IMG/VR virus record: IMGVR_UViG_2802429234_000002
Length of the DNA stretch: 30,476 nucleotides
Direction: 5' to 3' (one strand)
Source: a virus
Taxonomy: Duplodnaviria > Heunggongvirae > Uroviricota > Caudoviricetes
Shown here piece by piece: positions 1 through 8,759 of the stretch. How positions within the stretch are numbered: position 1 is the first letter of the stretch; each line of letters begins with the position of its first letter. The notes under the pieces were generated by a model that saw only the letters and a list, made by a program, of their open reading frames with translations, made no database searches and was not told the origin of the DNA. Both the position numbers and the translations under genes were made by a program.

Positions 1-798
1 TTAGAACATCACCTTATGACCATATTGCTCAAGAATCCCTTTTACGCGCTCCATGGTTTCTTTTTTCGGTGGTTTCACACCGTCGAGTTTGTACTCTTCG
101 CCCATCGCCACCCACTTATGTTTGCCTAACTCATGGTAGGGGAGGAGCTCGATTTTTTCGACGTTACCCATATCGCGAGTAAATTCACCGAGGCGATGAG
201 CTGAATCGTCATCGTCAGACCAGCCAGGTACTACGACATAACGTATCCAGACTTTCACATTTTTGTTCGCCAGATATTTAGCAAACTCGAGTGTACGATG
301 GTTGGAAACGCCCACCAGATTCTGGTGGATTTCGTCGTTCATCTGTTTGAGATCAAGCATTACCAGGTCGGTCACTTCCAGCAGTTCATCAATTACTGGA
401 TCGTAACGACGAACAAAACCGTTAGTGTCCAGACAGGTATGAATGCCTTCTTTTTTGCAGGCGCGGAACCAGTCGCGAACGAACTCGGCTTGCAGGATTG
501 CTTCACCGCCGGATGCGGTAACGCCGCCGCCGGAAGCGTTCATAAAGTGGCGATAGGTCACCACTTCCTTCATTAAATCTTCAACGGTAACTTCTTTACC
601 GCCATGCGTGTCCCAGGTGTCGCGGTTATGACAATACAGGCAGCGCATCAGGCAGCCCTGGAAAAAGGTGATAAAGCGAATACCTGGACCGTCTACGGTT
701 CCACAGGATTCAAAGGAGTGAATGCGACCAATAACTGACTTGGTAGCCCCCGCCGCAGCGGTATTTTCTGTTGTATTACAATTAGTTAAATTACTCAT
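1..798 (-). CDS. pflA: Pyruvate formate-lyase activating enzyme (radical SAM), host gene; the ORF as drawn carries a 19-codon N-terminal extension relative to the PflA N-terminus I recall ([11 protein letters not shown]...)
   Basis: 265-aa ORF with radical-SAM CX3CX2C motif (CLMRCLYC) and glycine-rich stretch [10 protein letters not shown]; sequence recognised from memory as enterobacterial PflA; stop codon at 1-3; the codon at the recalled start position (739-741) is AAG. Confidence 0.9.
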
Positions 799-829
799 AT
801 CGCTTCAATTGGCTCTAGTTAACTCTGGT

Positions 830-1825
830 TTATGGACGCATTATGGACATTCCTGACACCGGGTTAAGAGTCACAGCATCTTGTAAGAAATCCGGTGCAA
901 AGTGTGCGTAGGTCATAGTTTGCTGAATGTTAGAATGACCCAGGATGCGCTGCAATGTGATTATGTTACCTCCATTCATTATAAAATGTGTGGCAAATGT
1001 ATGCCTCAAAACATGCACTGCCTGTCCGTCAGGTAAATCGGGTTTTACTTCCCTGAGAGCGTTGCGCACTTTGTAGTAACTGGCATTAAAAAGCCTGCCA
1101 GAATTTTTGGTTTTGATCCGTTTAATCAAGTCCTGCGAAACGGGAATTGTCCTGCGCTTTCCGTTTTTGGTTTTCATAAACGTAACCATTTGGTTAATGA
1201 TGTGTTCAGCTTTTAAATTAGACACTTCACTCCAGCGTCCACCAGTAGAAAGGCAGACCAGAGTCGCATTTAATTCATCACCATCAAGCATGGATAGCAG
1301 CCGCGTAATCTCTTCACTGGACAAAAAAGCCATTTCCGTAACAGCTTCACGTAACCGCTTCACCTCACGGAACGGGTTGTGAGAGTGATATTCACCGGCG
1401 TCAATTAACTTGGTGAACATCCCGCTCATTATTGCCAGATGCCGATTTACGCTGGCTGGTTTTAGACCGTCGTTCATCATTACAACGCGATAATCAGTTA
1501 TCGTTTTCTTTGTTAGCTGGTCCGCCCTGGACACTCCCATCTCAGCAAATTTGGCAATTATTGTCGTCAAACGCCCCCGTTCAATATCTCCACGCTCATG
1601 TGATTTTCCGTGATATATCCACCATCTGCCTAACAACTCTGTAAGAGTTCGGCGGTCGGCCGGCTTCTCCAACCACTCTTTGTTGTGGTAGTTAACCAGG
1701 ACATGACGCTCGAATGCCTGGGCTTCACCTTTAGTTTTAAATTTCCGCCTGATACGTTTTCCATCTGCACCCTGCGGCCTGACGTCCACTTCATAACGAC
1801 CATCATCGAGCTTTTTAATAGACAT
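830..1825 (-). CDS. int: Tyrosine recombinase / phage integrase (P2 Int-like)
   Basis: 331-aa ORF; N-terminus MSIKKLDDGRYEVD resembles P2 Int; C-terminal catalytic region HVLRHTFATHF...ITLQRILGHSNIQQTMTYAH carries the R...HxxR...Y tyrosine-recombinase signature; first gene of the prophage next to the host junction. Confidence 0.93.
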   Translation of the reverse strand: MSIKKLDDGRYEVDVRPQGADGKRIRRKFKTKGEAQAFERHVLVNYHNKEWLEKPADRRTLTELLGRWWIYHGKSHERGDIERGRLTTIIAKFAEMGVSRADQLTKKTITDYRVVMMNDGLKPASVNRHLAIMSGMFTKLIDAGEYHSHNPFREVKRLREAVTEMAFLSSEEITRLLSMLDGDELNATLVCLSTGGRWSEVSNLKAEHIINQMVTFMKTKNGKRRTIPVSQDLIKRIKTKNSGRLFNASYYKVRNALREVKPDLPDGQAVHVLRHTFATHFIMNGGNIITLQRILGHSNIQQTMTYAHFAPDFLQDAVTLNPVSGMSIMRP

Positions 1826-1918: not shown

Positions 1919-2218
1919 TCAGCCAGTCTTTTGGTCTGAGTGGTGCAAGGTTGTTGAGTCTTGCCCAATGTGTGCGAGCGCCGGGGCTATTTGTCCGGCA
2001 GCGGGATCTGTCTCATCAAACATGAACCAGTCACGGTATTTTCTGAACCTTTCTACTTTAAAAAACTTCTTAGCATTTTCTAGGGACATCATAGCCTTAC
2101 CTGATTCATAACCTGCATATGTGGTGTAGTTGATGCCAGCTAGTTCAGCTACCTCCTTCATTTTCAGACGTTCAGACTCACGGATAAGCTTCAAACGTTC
2201 GCTAGTGTCAGTTGACAT
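1919..2218 (-). CDS. C: Immunity repressor C (P2 C-like); start taken at the internal ATG giving 99 aa
   Basis: HTH-containing small protein upstream of int on the same strand; C-terminal GQIAPALAH motif resembles P2 C as recalled; divergent from cox. The track ORF extends to 2269 but P2 C is 99 aa. Confidence 0.8.
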   Translation of the reverse strand: MSTDTSERLKLIRESERLKMKEVAELAGINYTTYAGYESGKAMMSLENAKKFFKVERFRKYRDWFMFDETDPAAGQIAPALAHIGQDSTTLHHSDQKTG

Positions 2219-2321
2219 AAATTCTCTAACCTCGTATTCTTTTGCATAGTTGATATGATTTATCAGCATCTAACGACTCTAAATCGCTCTAGATCGCTGA
2301 CATCAATGTGAGGATAGCAAA
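2219..2321. promoter_or_regulatory. Lysis-lysogeny switch region (face-to-face Pe/Pc promoters and probable C operator)
   Basis: 103-bp divergent intergenic region between C and cox; contains two overlapping 12-bp direct repeats CTCTA[A/G]ATCGCT at 2277-2288 and 2287-2298, spaced one helical turn apart; P2 C is known to bind direct repeats. Confidence 0.5.
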
Positions 2322-2678
2322 ATGAATGTCGGATCTGAAATTTGTGACGAGAAAAGACAAGAAGTTTCTGCTCTTAAAAAAAACAAGCGTGATTCCATTA
2401 AGTTGGCTGCGGATCCGTCAGATTTACTGTCGAAAGAGGGTTTTGCTCTTTACATCGGTAAGACTCCTCGTGCGGTGGCTGAAATGGCACGAGCTGGAAA
2501 GCTGCCAGCATTCTATATGACAGACCCGTTAAAGCCGGGCGGTCACGCTGAGTTATGGATTAATCGTCGTGAGTGGGACAAATATGCAGCTCAACTAGTC
2601 GATGAAGCTCCGACAGAATGGCATGACTGGAAGAACCGCATAAGTTACAGCAAATCCAGACATGGCCACGCGGCCTAA
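2322..2678 (+). CDS. cox: Cox-like excisionase / early transcriptional regulator
   Basis: First rightward gene after the switch region; SD GAGGA upstream; positional equivalent of P2 cox; motif MTDP...WINRREW reminiscent of the Cox/Apl family; 118 aa, longer than P2 Cox (91 aa). Confidence 0.7.
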   Translation: MNVGSEICDEKRQEVSALKKNKRDSIKLAADPSDLLSKEGFALYIGKTPRAVAEMARAGKLPAFYMTDPLKPGGHAELWINRREWDKYAAQLVDEAPTEWHDWKNRISYSKSRHGHAA

Positions 2679-2687
2679 GGAGGAGCC

Positions 2688-3152
2688 ATGAGGCAAGATT
2701 TAAATAAAACATCGGTGACTATCATCAGAGGAAACCTTGAAGATGCATCACCATCTAACAGCCTGACTATTACGTATAGTGAGTTTGCTAATAGTACGAA
2801 AGAATATAAATCAGCCGATGAATTGAGAAAACAAAATATCATTTTGGATAATGATGAACTTGTTTTTATTAGTTCAGATGGTGATGAAGAAATTCTACGG
2901 CTGAATTTGAAATCTTTATTTCATGACTCTTTTTTGCGCATTAAATATGAATGCGTTGGTATGACCGTTCAAGAGCGCATGGAACTCGCTAAGGCTCTTC
3001 GTGAAACGATAATTTCTAAATCAGGCGATATAAATAGTATTAAATGGTCAATAGGGCTTGATGACTGGAAAAGTATTTTTGACATGATGACGCATCCGTA
3101 TAAACAGCATACGGATGCAAGATGCTATTTTAAAAATGATTTATATCAATAA
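2688..3152 (+). CDS. Hypothetical protein, 154 aa, no recognisable family; low-GC moron
   Basis: ATG 9 bp after the cox stop with strong SD (AAGGAGG); G+C about 37% by manual count of 2688-2759; not part of the P2 gene set I recall. Confidence 0.65.
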   Translation: MRQDLNKTSVTIIRGNLEDASPSNSLTITYSEFANSTKEYKSADELRKQNIILDNDELVFISSDGDEEILRLNLKSLFHDSFLRIKYECVGMTVQERMELAKALRETIISKSGDINSIKWSIGLDDWKSIFDMMTHPYKQHTDARCYFKNDLYQ

Positions 3153-3324
3153 AGCCTTTGAGTTGGACTGGCTTTTTAGGGTGAATGATCTCTCTTAATT
3201 GAATAGTTAATTCATCCACTTTTTTAGCGTCCTCAAAATCTCCCATTGGAGTTGGTAGGGTATTTGCTAATGCAACCGCTTTTTCGAGAGTGGTTATAAG
3301 TTCGTCAATATTTTGATTATTCAT
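3130..3324 (-). CDS. Hypothetical protein, 64 aa, no recognisable family; convergent with and overlapping the 154-aa ORF
   Basis: ATG at 3322-3324 preceded by SD GAGGT with about 5-nt spacer (minus strand); low GC; 3' end overlaps the 3' end of the 154-aa ORF by 23 bp. Confidence 0.5.
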   Translation of the reverse strand: MNNQNIDELITTLEKAVALANTLPTPMGDFEDAKKVDELTIQLREIIHPKKPVQLKGFIDINHF

Positions 3325-3424
3325 TTATTACCTCGCTTGTGGTTGGTTGTTTTTGGCGATTCGATCTTACCACAAGACCATGTGCCGGACATGGCTAAAA
3401 ACCGGCTCTGTTTCAGGAGGAGTT

Positions 3425-3595
3425 ATGCAGGAACCTCGTTGTATTGCTCAGTTATTGCGTAACGAAAGCCCTAGGGCGATTGACTTCACCATCACCCACG
3501 GGAAAGGACGCAAGGGAATCATTATCCGCACCAAAAAACAGAGTTCGTTAAAGAAGGCTCTGACCTTTCTGAAAAGCCGGAGGGTCTGGAAATGA
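3425..3595 (+). CDS. Small early protein, positional equivalent of P2 orf78; start set at the SD-preceded internal ATG
   Basis: AGGAGG at 3415-3420 followed by ATG 3425; stop overlaps the start of the next gene (ATGA at 3592-3595); track ORF begins at 3347. Confidence 0.55.
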   Translation: MQEPRCIAQLLRNESPRAIDFTITHGKGRKGIIIRTKKQSSLKKALTFLKSRRVWK

Positions 3596-4092
3596 CAGTG
3601 ATGACGCTTAATCTCGTTGAAAAACAGCCAGCAGCTATGCGCCGGATAATTGGTAAGCATCTGGCCGTCCCTCGCTGGCAGGATACATGTGATTATTATA
3701 ATCAGATGATGGAACGCGAACGGCTAACGGTTTGCTTTCATGCGCAGTTAAAACAGCGTCACGCAACGATGCGTTTTGAAGAAATGAACGACGTCGAACG
3801 TGAACGGCTGGTTTGTGCAATTGATGAATTGCGCGGGGCATTCTCAAAACGCCGTCAGGTTGGCGCAAGTGAGTATGCATATATTAGTTTTTTAACAGTC
3901 AGTCAGCGTCGCACTTTATTTATGCACGCACGGCTGACAGAAAAAGAATTTAACCAGCCATACTGGCGAATTAATGAAGAGTCATGTTACTGGCGTGATG
4001 CTTTATTCCGTGCATTACGTGAATTATTCAGTCTGTTTGAGTATGCACCGACAATTCTGACGTCGGTAAAACCAGAGCAATATCTGCATTAA
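3592..4092 (+). CDS. B: Putative replication protein B-like (166 aa)
   Basis: 166-aa ORF translationally coupled to the upstream small gene; position and length match what I recall for P2 gene B; no motif confirmation. Confidence 0.5.
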   Translation: MTVMTLNLVEKQPAAMRRIIGKHLAVPRWQDTCDYYNQMMERERLTVCFHAQLKQRHATMRFEEMNDVERERLVCAIDELRGAFSKRRQVGASEYAYISFLTVSQRRTLFMHARLTEKEFNQPYWRINEESCYWRDALFRALRELFSLFEYAPTILTSVKPEQYLH

Positions 4093-4368: not shown

Positions 4369-4382
4369 CAGGAAAGTTGGAA

Positions 4383-4628
4383 ATGACAAATACAAAATGG
4401 TTCAGGAAACGCTTAACAGATTATCAACTTTCATTACTTAAAAAATTAGATGACAAGACTCCACTACATCCTTCAAGCGATGTCTTCCGCTCCTGGCCTA
4501 GCCGTGTGGAAAAAACATTTATAGCAATGGGGAAATGGGGACTTGTGACCAAATCAAGAGAAGGTTTCTGTATTACCGATAATGGCCGGGAAATGATTGA
4601 TTCTGCGGAGAGGGCATACAGCGAATGA
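4383..4628 (+). CDS. Small early protein (hypothetical), 81 aa from ATG 4383
   Basis: SD-like CAGGAAAG upstream; track ORF starts at TTG 4377; stop overlaps the next start (ATGA at 4625). Confidence 0.55.
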   Translation: MTNTKWFRKRLTDYQLSLLKKLDDKTPLHPSSDVFRSWPSRVEKTFIAMGKWGLVTKSREGFCITDNGREMIDSAERAYSE

Positions 4629-4915
4629 AAAATATATTGCTTAATAACTGGCTGAAGATTTCAGTTATGAAAAACGGTGATTTGTCGCTAGCTGATATTA
4701 AACGCGATAAAAACACTGGGGATATGGTGGAATCAACTATAGCCATTTATGCGGATAAATTAAACCTCCTGTCTGATGTGGTCAATTTACTTGTTAAACG
4801 CGCTGTATTCCACAAGCAAATTTCCTCCGTGGATGAACTGACGAAATTAACGACAGAAATCACCAGCTATTGCGCTGATGAATTTAAAAACCTTAACGAC
4901 AAAAGGAACTGGTAA
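4625..4915 (+). CDS. Hypothetical protein, 96 aa, AT-rich
   Basis: Translationally coupled at both ends (ATGA at 4625, TAATG at 4913-4917); visibly AT-rich coding sequence. Confidence 0.5.
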   Translation: MKNILLNNWLKISVMKNGDLSLADIKRDKNTGDMVESTIAIYADKLNLLSDVVNLLVKRAVFHKQISSVDELTKLTTEITSYCADEFKNLNDKRNW

Positions 4916-5139: not shown

Positions 5140-5411
5140 GTATTCGTATTGAAATTGGCGAACGTTATGTCGTTACCAGTGACAGCTTTCAGTTTATTCT
5201 CCACGAGAAAAAGAGAGCGGAAAGCGGTAAAAACGCCGGTCAGGAATGGCTGGCGGTGGTTGGTTATTACCCGAAATTAAGCCAGCTCGTTTCCGGCCTG
5301 ATGCATCACGATATTCTGACCGGAAGCGCAAAGTCTTTTGCTGATTTAAACGCGCAGGTTGAGCAACTCAGCAGGCGTTGTTCAGAGGCTTTTGGCTCAT
5401 ATGGCCGTTAA
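5136..5411 (+). CDS. Small early protein (hypothetical)
   Basis: 91-aa ORF with SD GGAGA upstream; overlaps the start of A. Confidence 0.55.
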   Translation: MSIRIEIGERYVVTSDSFQFILHEKKRAESGKNAGQEWLAVVGYYPKLSQLVSGLMHHDILTGSAKSFADLNAQVEQLSRRCSEAFGSYGR

Positions 5412-7677
5412 AGCCTCCGGGCGTTTTGTCCCTCCGTCAGCATTTACCGCAGGCACCGGTAAGGCGTTTACCGGTGCTTATGCATGGAACGCGCCACGCG
5501 AGGCTGTCGGGCGCGAAAGACCCCTTACACGTGACGAGATACGTCAGGTGCAAGGTGTTTTATCCACGATTAACCGCCTGCCTTACTTTTTGCGTTCGCT
5601 GTTTACTTCACGCTATGACTACATCCGGCGCAATAAAAGCCCGGTGCACGGGTTTTATTTCCTCACATCCACTTTTCAGCGTCGTTTATGGCCGCGCATT
5701 GAGCGTGTGAATCAGCGCCATGAAATGAACACCGACGCGTCGTTGCTGTTTCTGGCAGAGCGTGACCACTATGCGCGCCTGCCGGGAATGAATGACAAGG
5801 AGCTGAAAAAGTTTGCCGCCCGTATCTCATCGCAGCTTTTCATGATGTATGAGGAACTCAGCGATGCCTGGGTGGATGCGCATGGCGAAAAAGTATCGCT
5901 GTTTACGGATGAGGCGCAGGCGCATCTGTATGGTCATGTTGCTGGCGCTGCACGTGCTTTCAATATTTCCCCGCTTTACTGGAAAAAATACCGTAAAGGA
6001 CAGATGACCACGAGGCAGGCATATTCTGCCATTGCCCGTCTGTTTAACGATGAGTGGTGGACTCATCAGCTTAAAGGCCAGCGTATGCGCTGGCATGAGG
6101 CGTTATTGATAGCTGTCGGGGAGGTCAATAAAGACCGTTCTCCTTATGCCAGTAAACATGCCATTCGTGATGTGCGTGCGCGCCGTCAGGCAAATCTGGA
6201 GTTTCTTAAATCGTGTGACCTTGAAAACAGGGAAACCGGCGAACGCATCGACCTTATCAGTAAGGTGATGGGCAGTATTTCTAATCCTGAAATTCGCCGG
6301 ATGGAGCTGATGAACACCATTGCCGGTATTGAGCGTTACGCCGCAGCAGAGGGTGATGTGGGGATGTTTATCACGCTGACCACGCCGTCAAAGTATCACC
6401 CGACACGTCAGGTCGGAAAAGGTGAAAGTAAAACCGTCCAGCTAAATCACGGCTGGAACGATGAGGCATTTAATCCAAAGGACGCGCAGCGTTATCTCTG
6501 CCGTATCTGGAGCCTGATGCGCACGGCATTCAAGGATAATGATTTACAGGTCTACGGTTTGCGAGTCGTCGAGCCACACCACGACGGAACGCCGCACTGG
6601 CATATGATGCTTTTTTGTAATCCACGCCAGCGTAACCAGATTATTGAAATCATGCGTCGCTATGCGCTCAAAGAGGATGGCGACGAAAGAGGAGCCGTGC
6701 GAAACCGTTTTCAGGCAAAACACCTTAACCGGGGCGGTGCTGCGGGATATATCGCGAAATACATCTCAAAAAACATCGACGGATATGCACTGGATGGTCA
6801 GCTCGATAACGATACCGGCAGGCCGCTGAAAGACACTGCAGCGGCTGTTACCGCATGGGCGTCAACGTGGCGTATCCCGCAATTTAAAACGGTTGGTCTG
6901 CCGACAATGGGGGCTTACCGTGAACTACGCAAATTGCCTCGTGGCGTCAGCATTGCTGATGAGTTTGACGAACGCGTCGAGGCTGCACGCGCCGCCGCAG
7001 ACAGTGGTGATTTTGCGTTGTATATCAGCGCGCAGGGTGGGGCAAATGTCCCGCGCGATTGTCAGACTGTCAGGGTTGCCCGTAGCCCGTCGGATGACGT
7101 TAACGAGTATGAGGAAGAAGTCGAGAGAGTGGTCGGCATTTACGCGCCGCATCTCGGCGCGCGTCATATTCATATCACCAGAACCACGGACTGGCGCATT
7201 GTGCCGAAAGTTCCTGTCGTTGAGCCTTTGACTTTAAAAAGCGGCATCGCCGCGCCTCGGAGTCCTGTCAATAACTGTGGAAAGCTCACCGGTGGTGATA
7301 CTTCGTTACCGGCTCCCACACCTTCTGAGCACGCCGCAGCAGTGCTTAATCTGGTAGATGACGGTGTTATCGAATGGAGTGACCCGGAGGTCGTGATGGC
7401 GCTCAGGGGCGCATTAAAACACGGACTGAGAACACCAAATCGTCAGCAAAGAAACGGAATCCCGTTAAAACCGCATGAAATTGCACCATCTGCCAGACTG
7501 ACCAGGTCTGAACGATTGCAAATTACCCGTATCCGCGTTGACCTCGCTCAGAACGGTATCAGGCCGCAACGATGGGAGCTTGAGGCGCTGGCGCGTGGCG
7601 CGACCGTAAATTATGACGGGAAAAAATTCACGTATCCGGTTGCTGATGAGTGGCCGGGGTTCTCGTTACCCATTTGA
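5401..7677 (+). CDS. A: Replication initiation protein A (rolling-circle HUH endonuclease)
   Basis: 758 aa from ATG 5401 (N-terminus MAVKASGRF as recalled for P2 A); HUH-type motif PHHDGTPHWHMMLF and tyrosine motif YIAKYISK; track ORF begins at TTG 5359. Confidence 0.9.
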   Translation: MAVKASGRFVPPSAFTAGTGKAFTGAYAWNAPREAVGRERPLTRDEIRQVQGVLSTINRLPYFLRSLFTSRYDYIRRNKSPVHGFYFLTSTFQRRLWPRIERVNQRHEMNTDASLLFLAERDHYARLPGMNDKELKKFAARISSQLFMMYEELSDAWVDAHGEKVSLFTDEAQAHLYGHVAGAARAFNISPLYWKKYRKGQMTTRQAYSAIARLFNDEWWTHQLKGQRMRWHEALLIAVGEVNKDRSPYASKHAIRDVRARRQANLEFLKSCDLENRETGERIDLISKVMGSISNPEIRRMELMNTIAGIERYAAAEGDVGMFITLTTPSKYHPTRQVGKGESKTVQLNHGWNDEAFNPKDAQRYLCRIWSLMRTAFKDNDLQVYGLRVVEPHHDGTPHWHMMLFCNPRQRNQIIEIMRRYALKEDGDERGAVRNRFQAKHLNRGGAAGYIAKYISKNIDGYALDGQLDNDTGRPLKDTAAAVTAWASTWRIPQFKTVGLPTMGAYRELRKLPRGVSIADEFDERVEAARAAADSGDFALYISAQGGANVPRDCQTVRVARSPSDDVNEYEEEVERVVGIYAPHLGARHIHITRTTDWRIVPKVPVVEPLTLKSGIAAPRSPVNNCGKLTGGDTSLPAPTPSEHAAAVLNLVDDGVIEWSDPEVVMALRGALKHGLRTPNRQQRNGIPLKPHEIAPSARLTRSERLQITRIRVDLAQNGIRPQRWELEALARGATVNYDGKKFTYPVADEWPGFSLPI

Positions 7678-7892
7678 GTAAAAACACAACGTGATTTGAT
7701 ATGGCATTGAATGGCTTATGCGGAGCAGTTATGGGGCAGCCGAAGGTCAATAGCATGCTGAATTAGAAGGCTAAATGCTATTGAGTGACTAGCATGTCGG
7801 TAAGGACAGCCGTTTGATCCGGGTCATAAAAGGCCATCCATTTAGTCTAATAAAATCATTGCGGGTAACCTTATGTCGACGCATAATTCGTC

Positions 7893-7907
7893 TTGAGCGA
7901 AGTCTTG
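7893..7907. repeat. Direct repeat copy 1 (TTGAGCGAAGTCTTG)
   Basis: Exact 15-bp match to 8157-8171. Confidence 0.85.
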
Positions 7908-7937
7908 TCAGTCTTTCATCGTATTGATGATGGGCGC

Positions 7938-7967
7938 AAAAAAACCACCCTGGCAGGTGGTTTTTTT
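7938..7967. terminator. Bidirectional rho-independent terminator (A7 - GC hairpin - T7)
   Basis: AAAAAAACCACCCTGGCAGGTGGTTTTTTT; serves the end of A (plus) and the small minus-strand peptide gene. Confidence 0.8.
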
Positions 7968-7979
7968 GTTTGAAGCATA

Positions 7980-8093
7980 TTAAAGCATAATGCTGACATT
8001 GATATTACTGACGTTTACTGACAAACCACTCGGACTACCGTTTGGATAGCCAAAGAGGGCCAGAACGAGAATGCAGTAATAGCATTTCTTCAT
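7980..8093 (-). CDS. Small hydrophobic peptide, 37 aa (MKKCYYCILVLALFGYPNGSPSGLSVNVSNINVSIML)
   Basis: ATG at 8091-8093 preceded by AGGAGG with 4-nt spacer (minus strand); hydrophobic N-terminal segment; terminator immediately downstream; lies where P2 carries tin/old. Confidence 0.4.
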   Translation of the reverse strand: MKKCYYCILVLALFGYPNGSPSGLSVNVSNINVSIML

Positions 8094-8156
8094 ATTGCCT
8101 CCTGTAAGTAGAGGGCAACTTCCACCGGTATATGCGCTTCTTAGGTGGAATGACTT

Positions 8157-8171
8157 TTGAGCGAAGTCTTG
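8157..8171. repeat. Direct repeat copy 2 (TTGAGCGAAGTCTTG)
   Basis: Exact 15-bp match to 7893-7907; the two copies bracket the terminator and the small peptide gene. Confidence 0.85.
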
Positions 8172-8238
8172 CCCTGAAATAATGCTCTGTTTAAACGCAA
8201 AGTGATTTGGCATATCACCGAACAGAGAGCCGGAAAAA

Positions 8239-8286
8239 CACAACATATAGTATGTCGTTGTTTCTAGACATACATTCTATGTTGTG
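8239..8286. repeat. Imperfect inverted repeat (18/20-bp arms, 10-nt spacer)
   Basis: CACAACATATAGTATGTC ... GACATACATTCTATGTTGTG; outer 9 bp and inner 6 bp pair perfectly. Confidence 0.7.
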
Positions 8287-8571
8287 TAACAAGGGCTTTG
8301 CATTAAACATGTTTGAGATTTTATTGATGTAGCTCAAAGTAAAAAACAGAGACTACGGATGATAAGGTCTTGAAAGCAATGTAAATTTTTTAAGGTTGCC
8401 AATTGCTTAAAAATGTACAGTTGCGGTATGGCGTACTTAAAAAGCTATGCATGCAACAAGTGAATGTTTTTGCATGCGTTGGGGATGTCCGTTCAGGCTG
8501 CGTGCGGTCAGGACTGGTGCGGATCCATAGTATCTATGCAACTGCATTAAAACCGCCCCGTGAAGCGGGCG

Positions 8572-8590
8572 GGCGAGGCGGGGAAAGCAC
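8572..8590. other. cos: cos site (19-nt cohesive-end sequence of the P2 family)
   Basis: GGCGAGGCGGGGAAAGCAC matches the P2 cohesive end as I recall it; located between A and Q as in P2; a GC-rich hairpin lies just 5' of it. Confidence 0.8.
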
Positions 8591-8732
8591 TGCGCGCTGG
8601 CGGTGGTGCTGATTTTATTTTTTCAGCGTCTGAGCGCGTCGTGATGGCGTTTAGATTGTGCGCCGGGGCGTTGGTGTGTCTGCGGGATGTTTTGTGCGGT
8701 GGTGAGCGTGTGAGGGCGTGATGACAGGGTGT

Positions 8733-8754
8733 AAAAAAGCCGCCCGCAGGCGGC
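8733..8754 (-). terminator. Rho-independent terminator after Q
   Basis: On the minus strand GCCGCC-TGCG-GGCGGC followed by TTTTTT, 5 bp past the Q stop. Confidence 0.75.
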
Positions 8755-8759
8755 GATGT

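Follow-up and report, generated by a model that had tools for sequence, protein, structure and literature searches.

An optional, AT-rich cargo site between cox and the orf78-like gene of P2-like prophages, marked by a conserved non-coding element

Introduction

Among the main models for defence hotspots carried by phages are the P2-like prophages, of which two or three cargo sites have been intensively mined. Here we describe a cassette of two small convergent genes and a conserved non-coding element, located between cox and an orf78-like gene at positions 2688-3424 of the IMG/VR virus record IMGVR_UViG_2802429234_000002 (30,476 nt; this whole stretch is called the window). The best explanation that we can offer, held with a little more belief than doubt, is a two-slot accessory cargo locus with a fixed regulatory end, whose expression, reciprocity, and role we infer.

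Morons are independently transcribed accessory genes found between genes that are adjacent in related phages, and a classical moron is a unit of a single promoter, gene, and terminator. Phage 186 uses convergent promoters pR and pL together with a CII-activated pE, and its genes fil and dhr, located downstream of cII, are early-lytic, non-essential, and inhibit host functions. In the P2 lysogen the early promoter Pe is repressed by C. Transcription of cox and of the replication gene B downstream of it starts from Pe (PMC10321612). A gene that lies antisense to a lytic operon and has a promoter of its own is a typical accessory locus, and lambda makes the antisense RNA OOP opposite cII (PMC7067206). 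Of the known P2 hotspots, old/tin separates gene A from the portal gene Q, and Z/fun is located among the tail genes (PMC9122126; 10.1101/2024.10.15.618418; PMC13586616); Rousset et al. 2022 (PMC9122126) covered the A-Q hotspot and the iLund4u preprint (10.1101/2024.10.15.618418) old/tin, Z/fun, and a tail-to-CI site. None of these three sources mentions cox, orf78, their junction, or the element described below, and no paper on the two cassette proteins was found in a partial coverage of the literature.

The site described here resembles old/tin and Z/fun in that variable, AT-rich, non-essential cargo lies between conserved core genes and is exchanged between lineages. It differs from them in its place (the cox-orf78 junction, within the early operon), in its fixed forward slot, reverse slot, and promoter element, in the small size of its cargo, and, unlike the P2 defence hotspots, in that 0 of 37 cargo representatives match PADLOC models. 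Like a moron, the cassette sits between neighbours that are adjacent in relatives, has an atypical G+C content and a predicted promoter of its own, and carries a reverse gene directed against the lytic operon; unlike morons, it reuses one promoter element for about 27 unrelated reverse families, usually has a second, promoterless forward gene riding on the early operon, and shows no clear terminator.

Results and Discussion

The cassette and its two anchor genes comprise the following features (aa, amino acids; ORF, open reading frame; SD, Shine-Dalgarno).

2322-2678, plus strand: cox, encoding a 118-aa Cox family protein (Pfam Phage_Cox, 8.6e-29; phrog_1831, 1.2e-60), opens the early operon and anchors the cassette on its left; stop codon TAA at 2676-2678
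2677-2685, plus strand: SD site of ORF154, AAGGAGGAG, overlapping the cox stop codon, with AAGGAGG at 2677-2683
2688-3152, plus strand: ORF154, forward cargo gene of family F1, 154 aa (RefSeq WP_001248439.1, hypothetical protein)
3130-3324, minus strand: ORF64, reverse cargo gene of family R1, 64 aa (RefSeq WP_001064716.1)
3325-3363, minus strand: predicted 5' leader of the ORF64 mRNA, CA-rich and unstructured, with the SD site GAGGT (complement of 3330-3334)
3364-3372, minus strand: candidate extended -10 promoter, TGGTAAGAT (consensus TGnTAnnnT; here TGnTAAGAT), predicted from the consensus match to drive leftward transcription of ORF64
3369-3406, no strand assigned: conserved GC-rich core, TACCACAAGACCATGTGCCGGACATGGCTAAAAACCGGC, with the inverted repeat CCATGT/ACATGG and the arms GCCGG/CCGGC
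3425-3595, plus strand: orf78-like gene, 56 aa (phrog_273, 5.9e-40), right anchor of the cassette

The ORF coordinates, both SD sites, the 9 nt between the cox stop codon and ORF154, and the 23-bp overlap of the two 3' ends (3130-3152) were read again from the sequence and agree with a first-pass annotation of the same DNA. The AT-richness noted there was likewise found: the cassette (2688-3324) has a G+C content of 34.5%, with 27 G/C in the first 72 nt of ORF154, against 46-47% in its flanks (cox 47.1%, orf78-like gene plus B 45.7%) and 52.7% in the whole window. Homologous cassettes from other hosts have 38-39% G+C vs 44-52% in their flanks.

The cox-orf78 junction was surveyed in 80 IMG/VR loci, for which a RepB of 99% identity or more served as the anchor. 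It is empty in 76 of them, P2-type loci included, and filled in 4, and the conserved element (3325-3424) is present in all 4 filled junctions and in 0/76 of the empty ones. Locus L004 shares the long cox type, and its flanks are 89% identical; its junction is empty and the orf78-like gene starts 10 nt after cox. Homology to the empty site ends right after the cox stop codon and right before the orf78 ATG, and AGGAGGAG is found at both junctions (before the orf78-like start at 3415-3422); the cassette therefore extends from start codon to start codon. At this junction E. coli has three unrelated cassettes, namely the window type, that of L002 (62 aa forward, 58 aa reverse), and that of L003 (198 aa forward, 68 aa reverse), among which no sequence similarity was found despite their common architecture. 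A cassette of the L002 architecture with close variant proteins occurs in strain BEN2908 behind a different, 90-aa cox and at another integration site, next to cpxP, and cassettes therefore move between P2 lineages. Among 5426 complete E. coli genomes, the window cassette occurs in 4, the conserved element in 60, and a match to the cox/orf78 region in 1670. E. coli lysogens with the cassette include DAX4, EA2, A3024, and BUCT2930.

At the level of sequence comparison, these junctions show window positions 2679-3424 to be one allele of an optional, exchangeable, AT-rich cargo site between cox and the orf78-like gene. The first-pass annotation had called the two ORFs extra relative to P2 and suggested horizontal acquisition, and both views are borne out by the junction comparison, by the exchange between lineages, and by the three unrelated cassettes at one E. 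coli junction. That annotation had glimpsed the promoter and overlooked the cassette as an allele of a widespread variable locus with the element at 3325-3424.

Selection was assessed from the ratio of nonsynonymous to synonymous substitution rates (dN/dS). Pairwise values across homologues of several genera are 0.09-0.49 for ORF154, and those for ORF64 across its homologues are 0.08-0.43. Relative to the closest variant (L006), 8 of 13 changes in ORF154 are synonymous, and all 8 substitutions in 2882-3017 are synonymous third-position changes; for ORF64 the count is 5 of 9, or 5 of 7 outside the overlap. Homologues of ORF64 with 52-65% identity occupy the same position in L008, L011, and L012 (Citrobacter-, Salmonella-, and Yersinia-type) and in L015, and its SD site GAGGT is separated from the ATG by a 5-nt spacer. 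Purifying selection on ORF64 marks it as a protein-coding gene and not merely an antisense RNA, so that a non-coding 64-aa ORF does not agree with the data. The substitution patterns thus show ORF154 and ORF64 both to be real protein-coding genes under purifying selection.

A reading of the cassette as decaying or neutral hitch-hiking DNA, its ORFs being annotation artefacts in an AT-rich spacer, would suit the lack of known domains, the low-confidence structure models, and the rarity in E. coli (4/5426). It is nevertheless close to refuted, and we consider it extremely improbable, given homologues at 32-65% aa identity in several genera with dN/dS well below 1, the 8/8 synonymous third-position substitutions, and the conservation of start codons, SD sites, and promoter.

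ORF154 is acidic, hydrophilic, and predicted to be soluble (isoelectric point 5.2; grand average of hydropathy, GRAVY, -0.54). A word-indexed search of 5.8 billion proteins returned near-identical copies only, in E. coli, E. albertii, and E. marmotae; exhaustive HMMER followed by a profile search delimited the F1 family as about 20 clusters (136-219 aa, 32-44% identity, Enterobacterales) with source names that include Citrobacter, Salmonella, Kluyvera, and Yersinia ruckeri. ORF154 and the family profile have no match in Pfam, PHROGs, NCBIfam, or PADLOC, the profile search of PDB sequences returned nothing but E > 0.1, tblastn of ORF154 against 50,697 deposited phage records gave no match, and a scan of GTDB species genomes with the F1 alignment returned E. 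albertii as the sole hit. The AlphaFold2 (AF2) model of ORF154, from a 19-sequence alignment, is poor (predicted local distance difference test, pLDDT, 54); its layout would be strands over residues 9-73 followed by helices over 74-150, and no PDB entry reached an E below 2.5 in Foldseek. Residues 82-145 align with the helicase-associated (HA) repeat protein P0026 (phmmer E 4.6e-7). An HA domain (PF03457) at the C-terminus was rejected, since hhalign gave a probability of 4.9% and no Pfam HA match was found in 19 family members.

ORF64 is also acidic and hydrophilic (GRAVY -0.28). Its single-sequence AF2 model (pLDDT 65) predicts two helices, 3-22 and 30-47, that form a hairpin and are followed by a conserved, flexible C-terminal tail, and the structure matches of this model are generic helical hairpins only, which leaves a Rop-like reading unsupported. 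No match to ORF64 was found in Pfam, PHROGs, NCBIfam, PADLOC, or PDB. The first-pass annotation had recognised neither protein, and these database and structure searches, which it had proposed, give the same outcome.

The third part of the cassette is a non-coding stretch of about 100 bp (3325-3424) between ORF64 and the orf78-like gene, highly similar among all cassette types and all genera and conserved beyond the cassette genes themselves; the window and L006 have 0 differences over it, vs 2-3% in the flanking genes. The ORF64 leader is conserved in cassettes with R1-type and with other small reverse genes. A survey of 115 loci with the core pattern (gene calls heuristic) has TGnTAnnnT at the equivalent place in 106 loci and shifted by a few bases into the core in 7 more (113/115 in total). 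Within this motif the T, A, and final T are invariant and the three middle bases vary over 16 hexamers, the pattern expected of an extended -10 promoter that functions. By the same heuristic calls, 114/115 loci have a reverse ORF whose start is 36-170 bp to the left of the core. The leftward extended -10 candidate at 3364-3372, which the first-pass annotation had picked out in the window, is thus a recurrent feature of the locus.

The GC-rich core spans about -15 to -50 of the predicted leftward promoter and reads CCATG(Y)/(R)CATGG plus GCCGRG/CYCGGC across loci. The window has one copy of its 24-nt pattern, ACCATGYGYCGRNCATGGNTAAAA, shuffled sequences have 0, and 95 IMG/VR contigs contain it; the core accompanies every cassette type, being present also in L008-L016 and L097-L191, and is missing from empty junctions. 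We would guess that it is an operator for a regulator. By-eye comparison with LexA, CRP, DnaA, Cox-box, and Ogr (TGT-N12-ACA) sites found none that fits. Two positions in the second stem of the core have changed in a compensatory way, one from G-C to A-T (9 loci) and one from C-G through T-G to T-A, beyond which an RNA pseudoknot or alternative-hairpin reading is unsupported; folding energies of the element are ordinary (z-scores +0.6 to -1.3, with -1.6 in the ORF64 3'-end region, 3100-3200), and Rfam 15 contains no family that matches it (best RNA-OUT, 20.2 bits against a gathering threshold of 41, E 1.5). A coding reading of the core (M-C/R-R-T/A-W-L-K) was rejected because indels of 1-3 nt follow TAAAA.

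The conservation of this element bears on whether the cassette might be a lysis-lysogeny switch module, in which leftward antisense transcription would run through ORF154 and cox towards Pe and into C/int, with the proteins in a secondary role. Such transcription would damp leaky early transcription and reinforce repressor synthesis, in analogy to lambda OOP or 186 pE/pR. In favour of this are the promoter element, which is conserved more than anything else in the locus (0 differences over its 100 bp vs 2-3% in flanking genes), the lack of a convincing terminator after ORF64, the GC-rich inverted repeat at -21 to -37, which resembles a regulator binding site, and the convergent promoters that P2-like switches already use (PMC1904263). 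As in lambda OOP and the 186 promoters, the leftward promoter lies downstream of an early rightward gene and the converging transcripts overlap the 3' end of that gene; unlike in those systems, the product of the leftward transcript is a conserved protein under purifying selection, neither phage 186 nor P2 itself has the element, and no regulatory RNA family was matched. Purifying selection on both proteins speaks against a switch, the great diversity of cargo families suits conflict genes better, most P2-like prophages are without the locus yet keep lysogeny, and an untranslated antisense transcript would probably be ended by Rho short of Pe. We regard the switch as improbable.

The coding overlap is 23 bp in the window, 4 bp in L008-L012, and 17 bp in L015, and is replaced by gaps of 0 to about 30 bp in L002, L003, and L016; as the overlap is not conserved, an antisense mechanism that relies on it is unlikely.

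Across several genera, many P2-like and 186-like prophages have a variable site that can be recognised by the core. The order cox, 139-157-aa forward gene, 62-64-aa reverse gene, orf78-like gene, and RepB is conserved in Citrobacter-, Salmonella-, and Yersinia ruckeri-type loci and in a metagenomic contig, and the pair recurs there in P2-like prophages from Escherichia, Citrobacter, Salmonella, and Yersinia; in Kluyvera the large protein has a different small partner. BLAST clustering of the cargo proteins, which are small (58-324 aa), gave about 27 reverse and about 29 forward families in many combinations. Scans of 37 cargo representatives against Pfam, PHROGs, NCBIfam, and PADLOC gave one clear match, 186 cII, which the heuristic had miscalled as cargo; PADLOC-DB v2 matched 0/37, and none of ORF154, ORF64, or 10 other cargo proteins. 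A Pfam match of one representative to T4 gp19 (E 3.5e-4) is marginal and was treated as spurious. Reverse-only cassettes also occur, such as L101 (127-bp gap, without a forward ORF of at least 40 aa), which makes the reverse gene plus the element the constant unit and the forward gene optional. The whole unit (forward gene, reverse gene, and element) is placed after cox in the window, before cox in Salmonella phages SEN4/SEN5 and in L108, and after cII in the 186-like L099 and L135.

SEN4 and SEN5 (L192, NC_028701.2: 24515-25310, for SEN5) are isolated phages in which the repressor gene is separated from cox by the cassette (158 aa forward, 60 aa reverse, core), so that the forward cargo comes first in the early operon. 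A 38-aa coding sequence annotated over the SEN4/SEN5 core is probably spurious.

A domain of about 70 aa (FGDL...Y.R.YY.NG...G.V.YG) is found at the C-terminus, or close to it, in forward cargo proteins that are otherwise unrelated (L003:1867-2463; L016:5001-5651, P0039 and P0036; forward genes of L157, L112, and L146). In L003, L016, L128, and L157 it stands opposite one type of small reverse protein (M.KK.V.V.P.KI...). The recurrence of this domain suggests that cargo proteins may be assembled from modules.

Family F1 faces R1 in 20 of 21 F1 loci from several genera. In the exceptional locus (L016/P0039) the F1 domain is fused to a C-terminal domain of about 70 aa also present in the 198-aa protein of L003 (43% identity, E 2e-11), and the small partner is of the type of the 68-aa L003 protein (39% identity); the small protein therefore tracks the C-terminal domain of the forward protein. 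R1 also faces the unrelated families F4 (5 loci), F7 (2 loci), and F17 (1 locus).

This pairing would fit a coupled effector-inhibitor pair, in which ORF154 would be a host- or phage-directed effector made from Pe and ORF64 its cognate inhibitor, constitutive in the lysogen. ORF64 would bind the C-terminal part of the forward protein and neutralise leaky expression or the effector of a superinfecting relative, and firing of Pe would shut off ORF64 by convergent transcription and free the effector. Besides the 20 of 21 F1/R1 loci and the chimera, which swaps its C-terminal domain along with its small partner, two further observations point this way: forward proteins facing R1/R8 types end, as judged by eye, in an acidic amphipathic helix motif (DDWDDIF, EEVKQVF, EELEQIF, DEMRQIL, YEEIAGLY), and the small proteins are acidic helical hairpins, like many antitoxins and inhibitors. 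However, the forward 3' end and the reverse gene are physically linked by their convergence, so the co-variation could be hitch-hiking; R1 types face unrelated F4, F7, and F17; reverse-only cassettes such as L101 exist; and no similarity to any toxin or antitoxin family was found. We judge this pair possible, though unlikely.

Its resemblance to toxin-antitoxin systems lies in two small adjacent genes, one small acidic protein, convergent overlapping ends in the window allele, and location on a mobile element. Unlike type II systems, the genes are convergent with separate promoters and not in one operon, and have no homology to known families (Pfam, PADLOC, NCBIfam, PDB); F1 faces R1 in 20 of 21 loci, other partners are shuffled, and reverse-only cassettes exist; unlike type I systems, neither protein is hydrophobic and the overlap is not conserved, and the GRAVY values (-0.54 and -0.28) argue against a type I toxin. 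What stands of the toxin/antisense, abortive-infection, or anti-defence module first suggested for this segment is the real convergent pair, with an effector-inhibitor function still a minority prospect; no known family was matched, and an obligate gene pair is contradicted by R1 opposite at least three unrelated forward families and by the reverse-only cassettes.

The two-slot accessory cargo locus is the reading that we favour. In slot 1, ORF154 would be transcribed from the early promoter Pe, only on entry into lytic development, because it directly follows cox with an SD site of its own; the gene is positioned for co-transcription with cox, as the first-pass annotation had expected. In slot 2, ORF64 could be made in the lysogen while Pe is repressed, because it has the opposite orientation and a conserved extended -10 promoter of its own. 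Strong transcription from Pe would be expected to suppress the leftward promoter, and since the two units converge, expression would be reciprocal, with the small protein in the lysogen and ORF154 in the early lytic phase. The cassette genes may be accessory, serving conflict or host modulation and not a core function of the phage, because their products are soluble, acidic, and under purifying selection, yet swapped between phage lineages by recombination in conserved flanks. The small reverse protein would then be a lysogen-expressed factor and ORF154 an early-lytic auxiliary factor of the kind of 186 fil and dhr. The forward slot is like that of fil/dhr in its position, with the cassette directly after cII in the 186-like L099 and L135; unlike this positional likeness, no sequence similarity between fil/dhr and ORF154 was found.

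Several points weigh against this reading. The biological role is its weakest link, since it draws on context and not on homology, and the expression pattern of both genes is deduced from position and P2 biology. The leftward promoter of ORF64 is predicted from its consensus match, and the strong conservation of the core at -15 to -50 goes beyond what a plain constitutive promoter explains. No terminator between ORF154 and ORF64 was called by the scan, and the hairpins at 3101-3130 (minus) and 3152-3180 (plus) are weak, which bears on the extent of antisense read-through. The F1/R1 pairing in 20/21 F1 loci could, from sequence, mean joint rather than independent working, and some forward-gene calls in the 115-locus heuristic are wrong, such as 186 cII called as cargo.

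The remaining features of the prophage that set the cassette in context are:

1-798, minus strand: pflA, host gene, opening the window
830-1825, minus strand: integrase, first gene of the P2-like prophage after pflA
1919-2269, minus strand: helix-turn-helix immunity repressor
3592-4092, following the orf78-like gene: B/RepB (phrog_235, 3.1e-104; Pfam Phage_RepB on the homologous gene in related loci)
5359-7677, further right in the prophage: replication gene A

In the RefSeq annotation this gene order recurs in four E. coli chromosomes, whose identity over 2322-3600 is 99.1-99.9%, and the identical Cox protein is named 'Cox family DNA-binding protein'. The prophage abuts pflA (window 1-830), the integrase gene beginning 32 bp past it, and this is likewise the integration site in those four E. 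coli chromosomes, E. albertii (L007), and L006. The window Cox (2322-2678) is a long, 118-aa variant; its Pfam Phage_Cox match spans residues 26-106, which indicates an N-terminal extension of about 25 residues relative to the 88-91-aa Cox of P2-type relatives.

The interval from gene A to the portal gene Q (window 7678-8759), the classical defence hotspot of P2, contains 0 ORFs of at least 90 aa and just ORFs of 40-88 aa, so the prophage seems to be without old/tin-type cargo there. A further small variable slot in the early operon lies at window 4377-4628 (83-aa ORF; G+C fraction 0.38-0.40 at about 4400-4900): an extra hypothetical gene between the DUF2732 and TraR/DksA genes is present in L001 and the window and missing from L005 and L004, and L005 instead has an extra 272-aa gene directly upstream of gene A.

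Conclusions

The locus is a phage accessory hotspot, a known sort of system, with an unusual fixed architecture. The cox-orf78 junction is a further cargo site of P2-like prophages, located in the early operon and with a grammar of its own (forward slot, reverse slot, common promoter element). For the window itself the message is modest, namely that ORF154 and ORF64 are real, optional genes matching no known family. With much less assurance than the two-slot reading, we put forward that the core and the extended -10 may be the fixed anchor of a new cargo-exchange system of P2/186-like prophages delivering pairs of a lysogen-made and an early-lytic gene, of which some, ORF154/ORF64 included, would be effector-inhibitor modules in phage, satellite, and host competition, and that the core may be bound by a regulator that all these phages, or their hosts, share.

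The conserved core is an unexplained sequence of regulatory type, and its 24-nt pattern provides a search handle for such cassettes that works without protein homology. Because about 27 reverse and 29 forward families have no known domain or defence match, the locus may offer a compact, clonable reservoir of candidates for phage-phage, phage-satellite, and phage-host interference.

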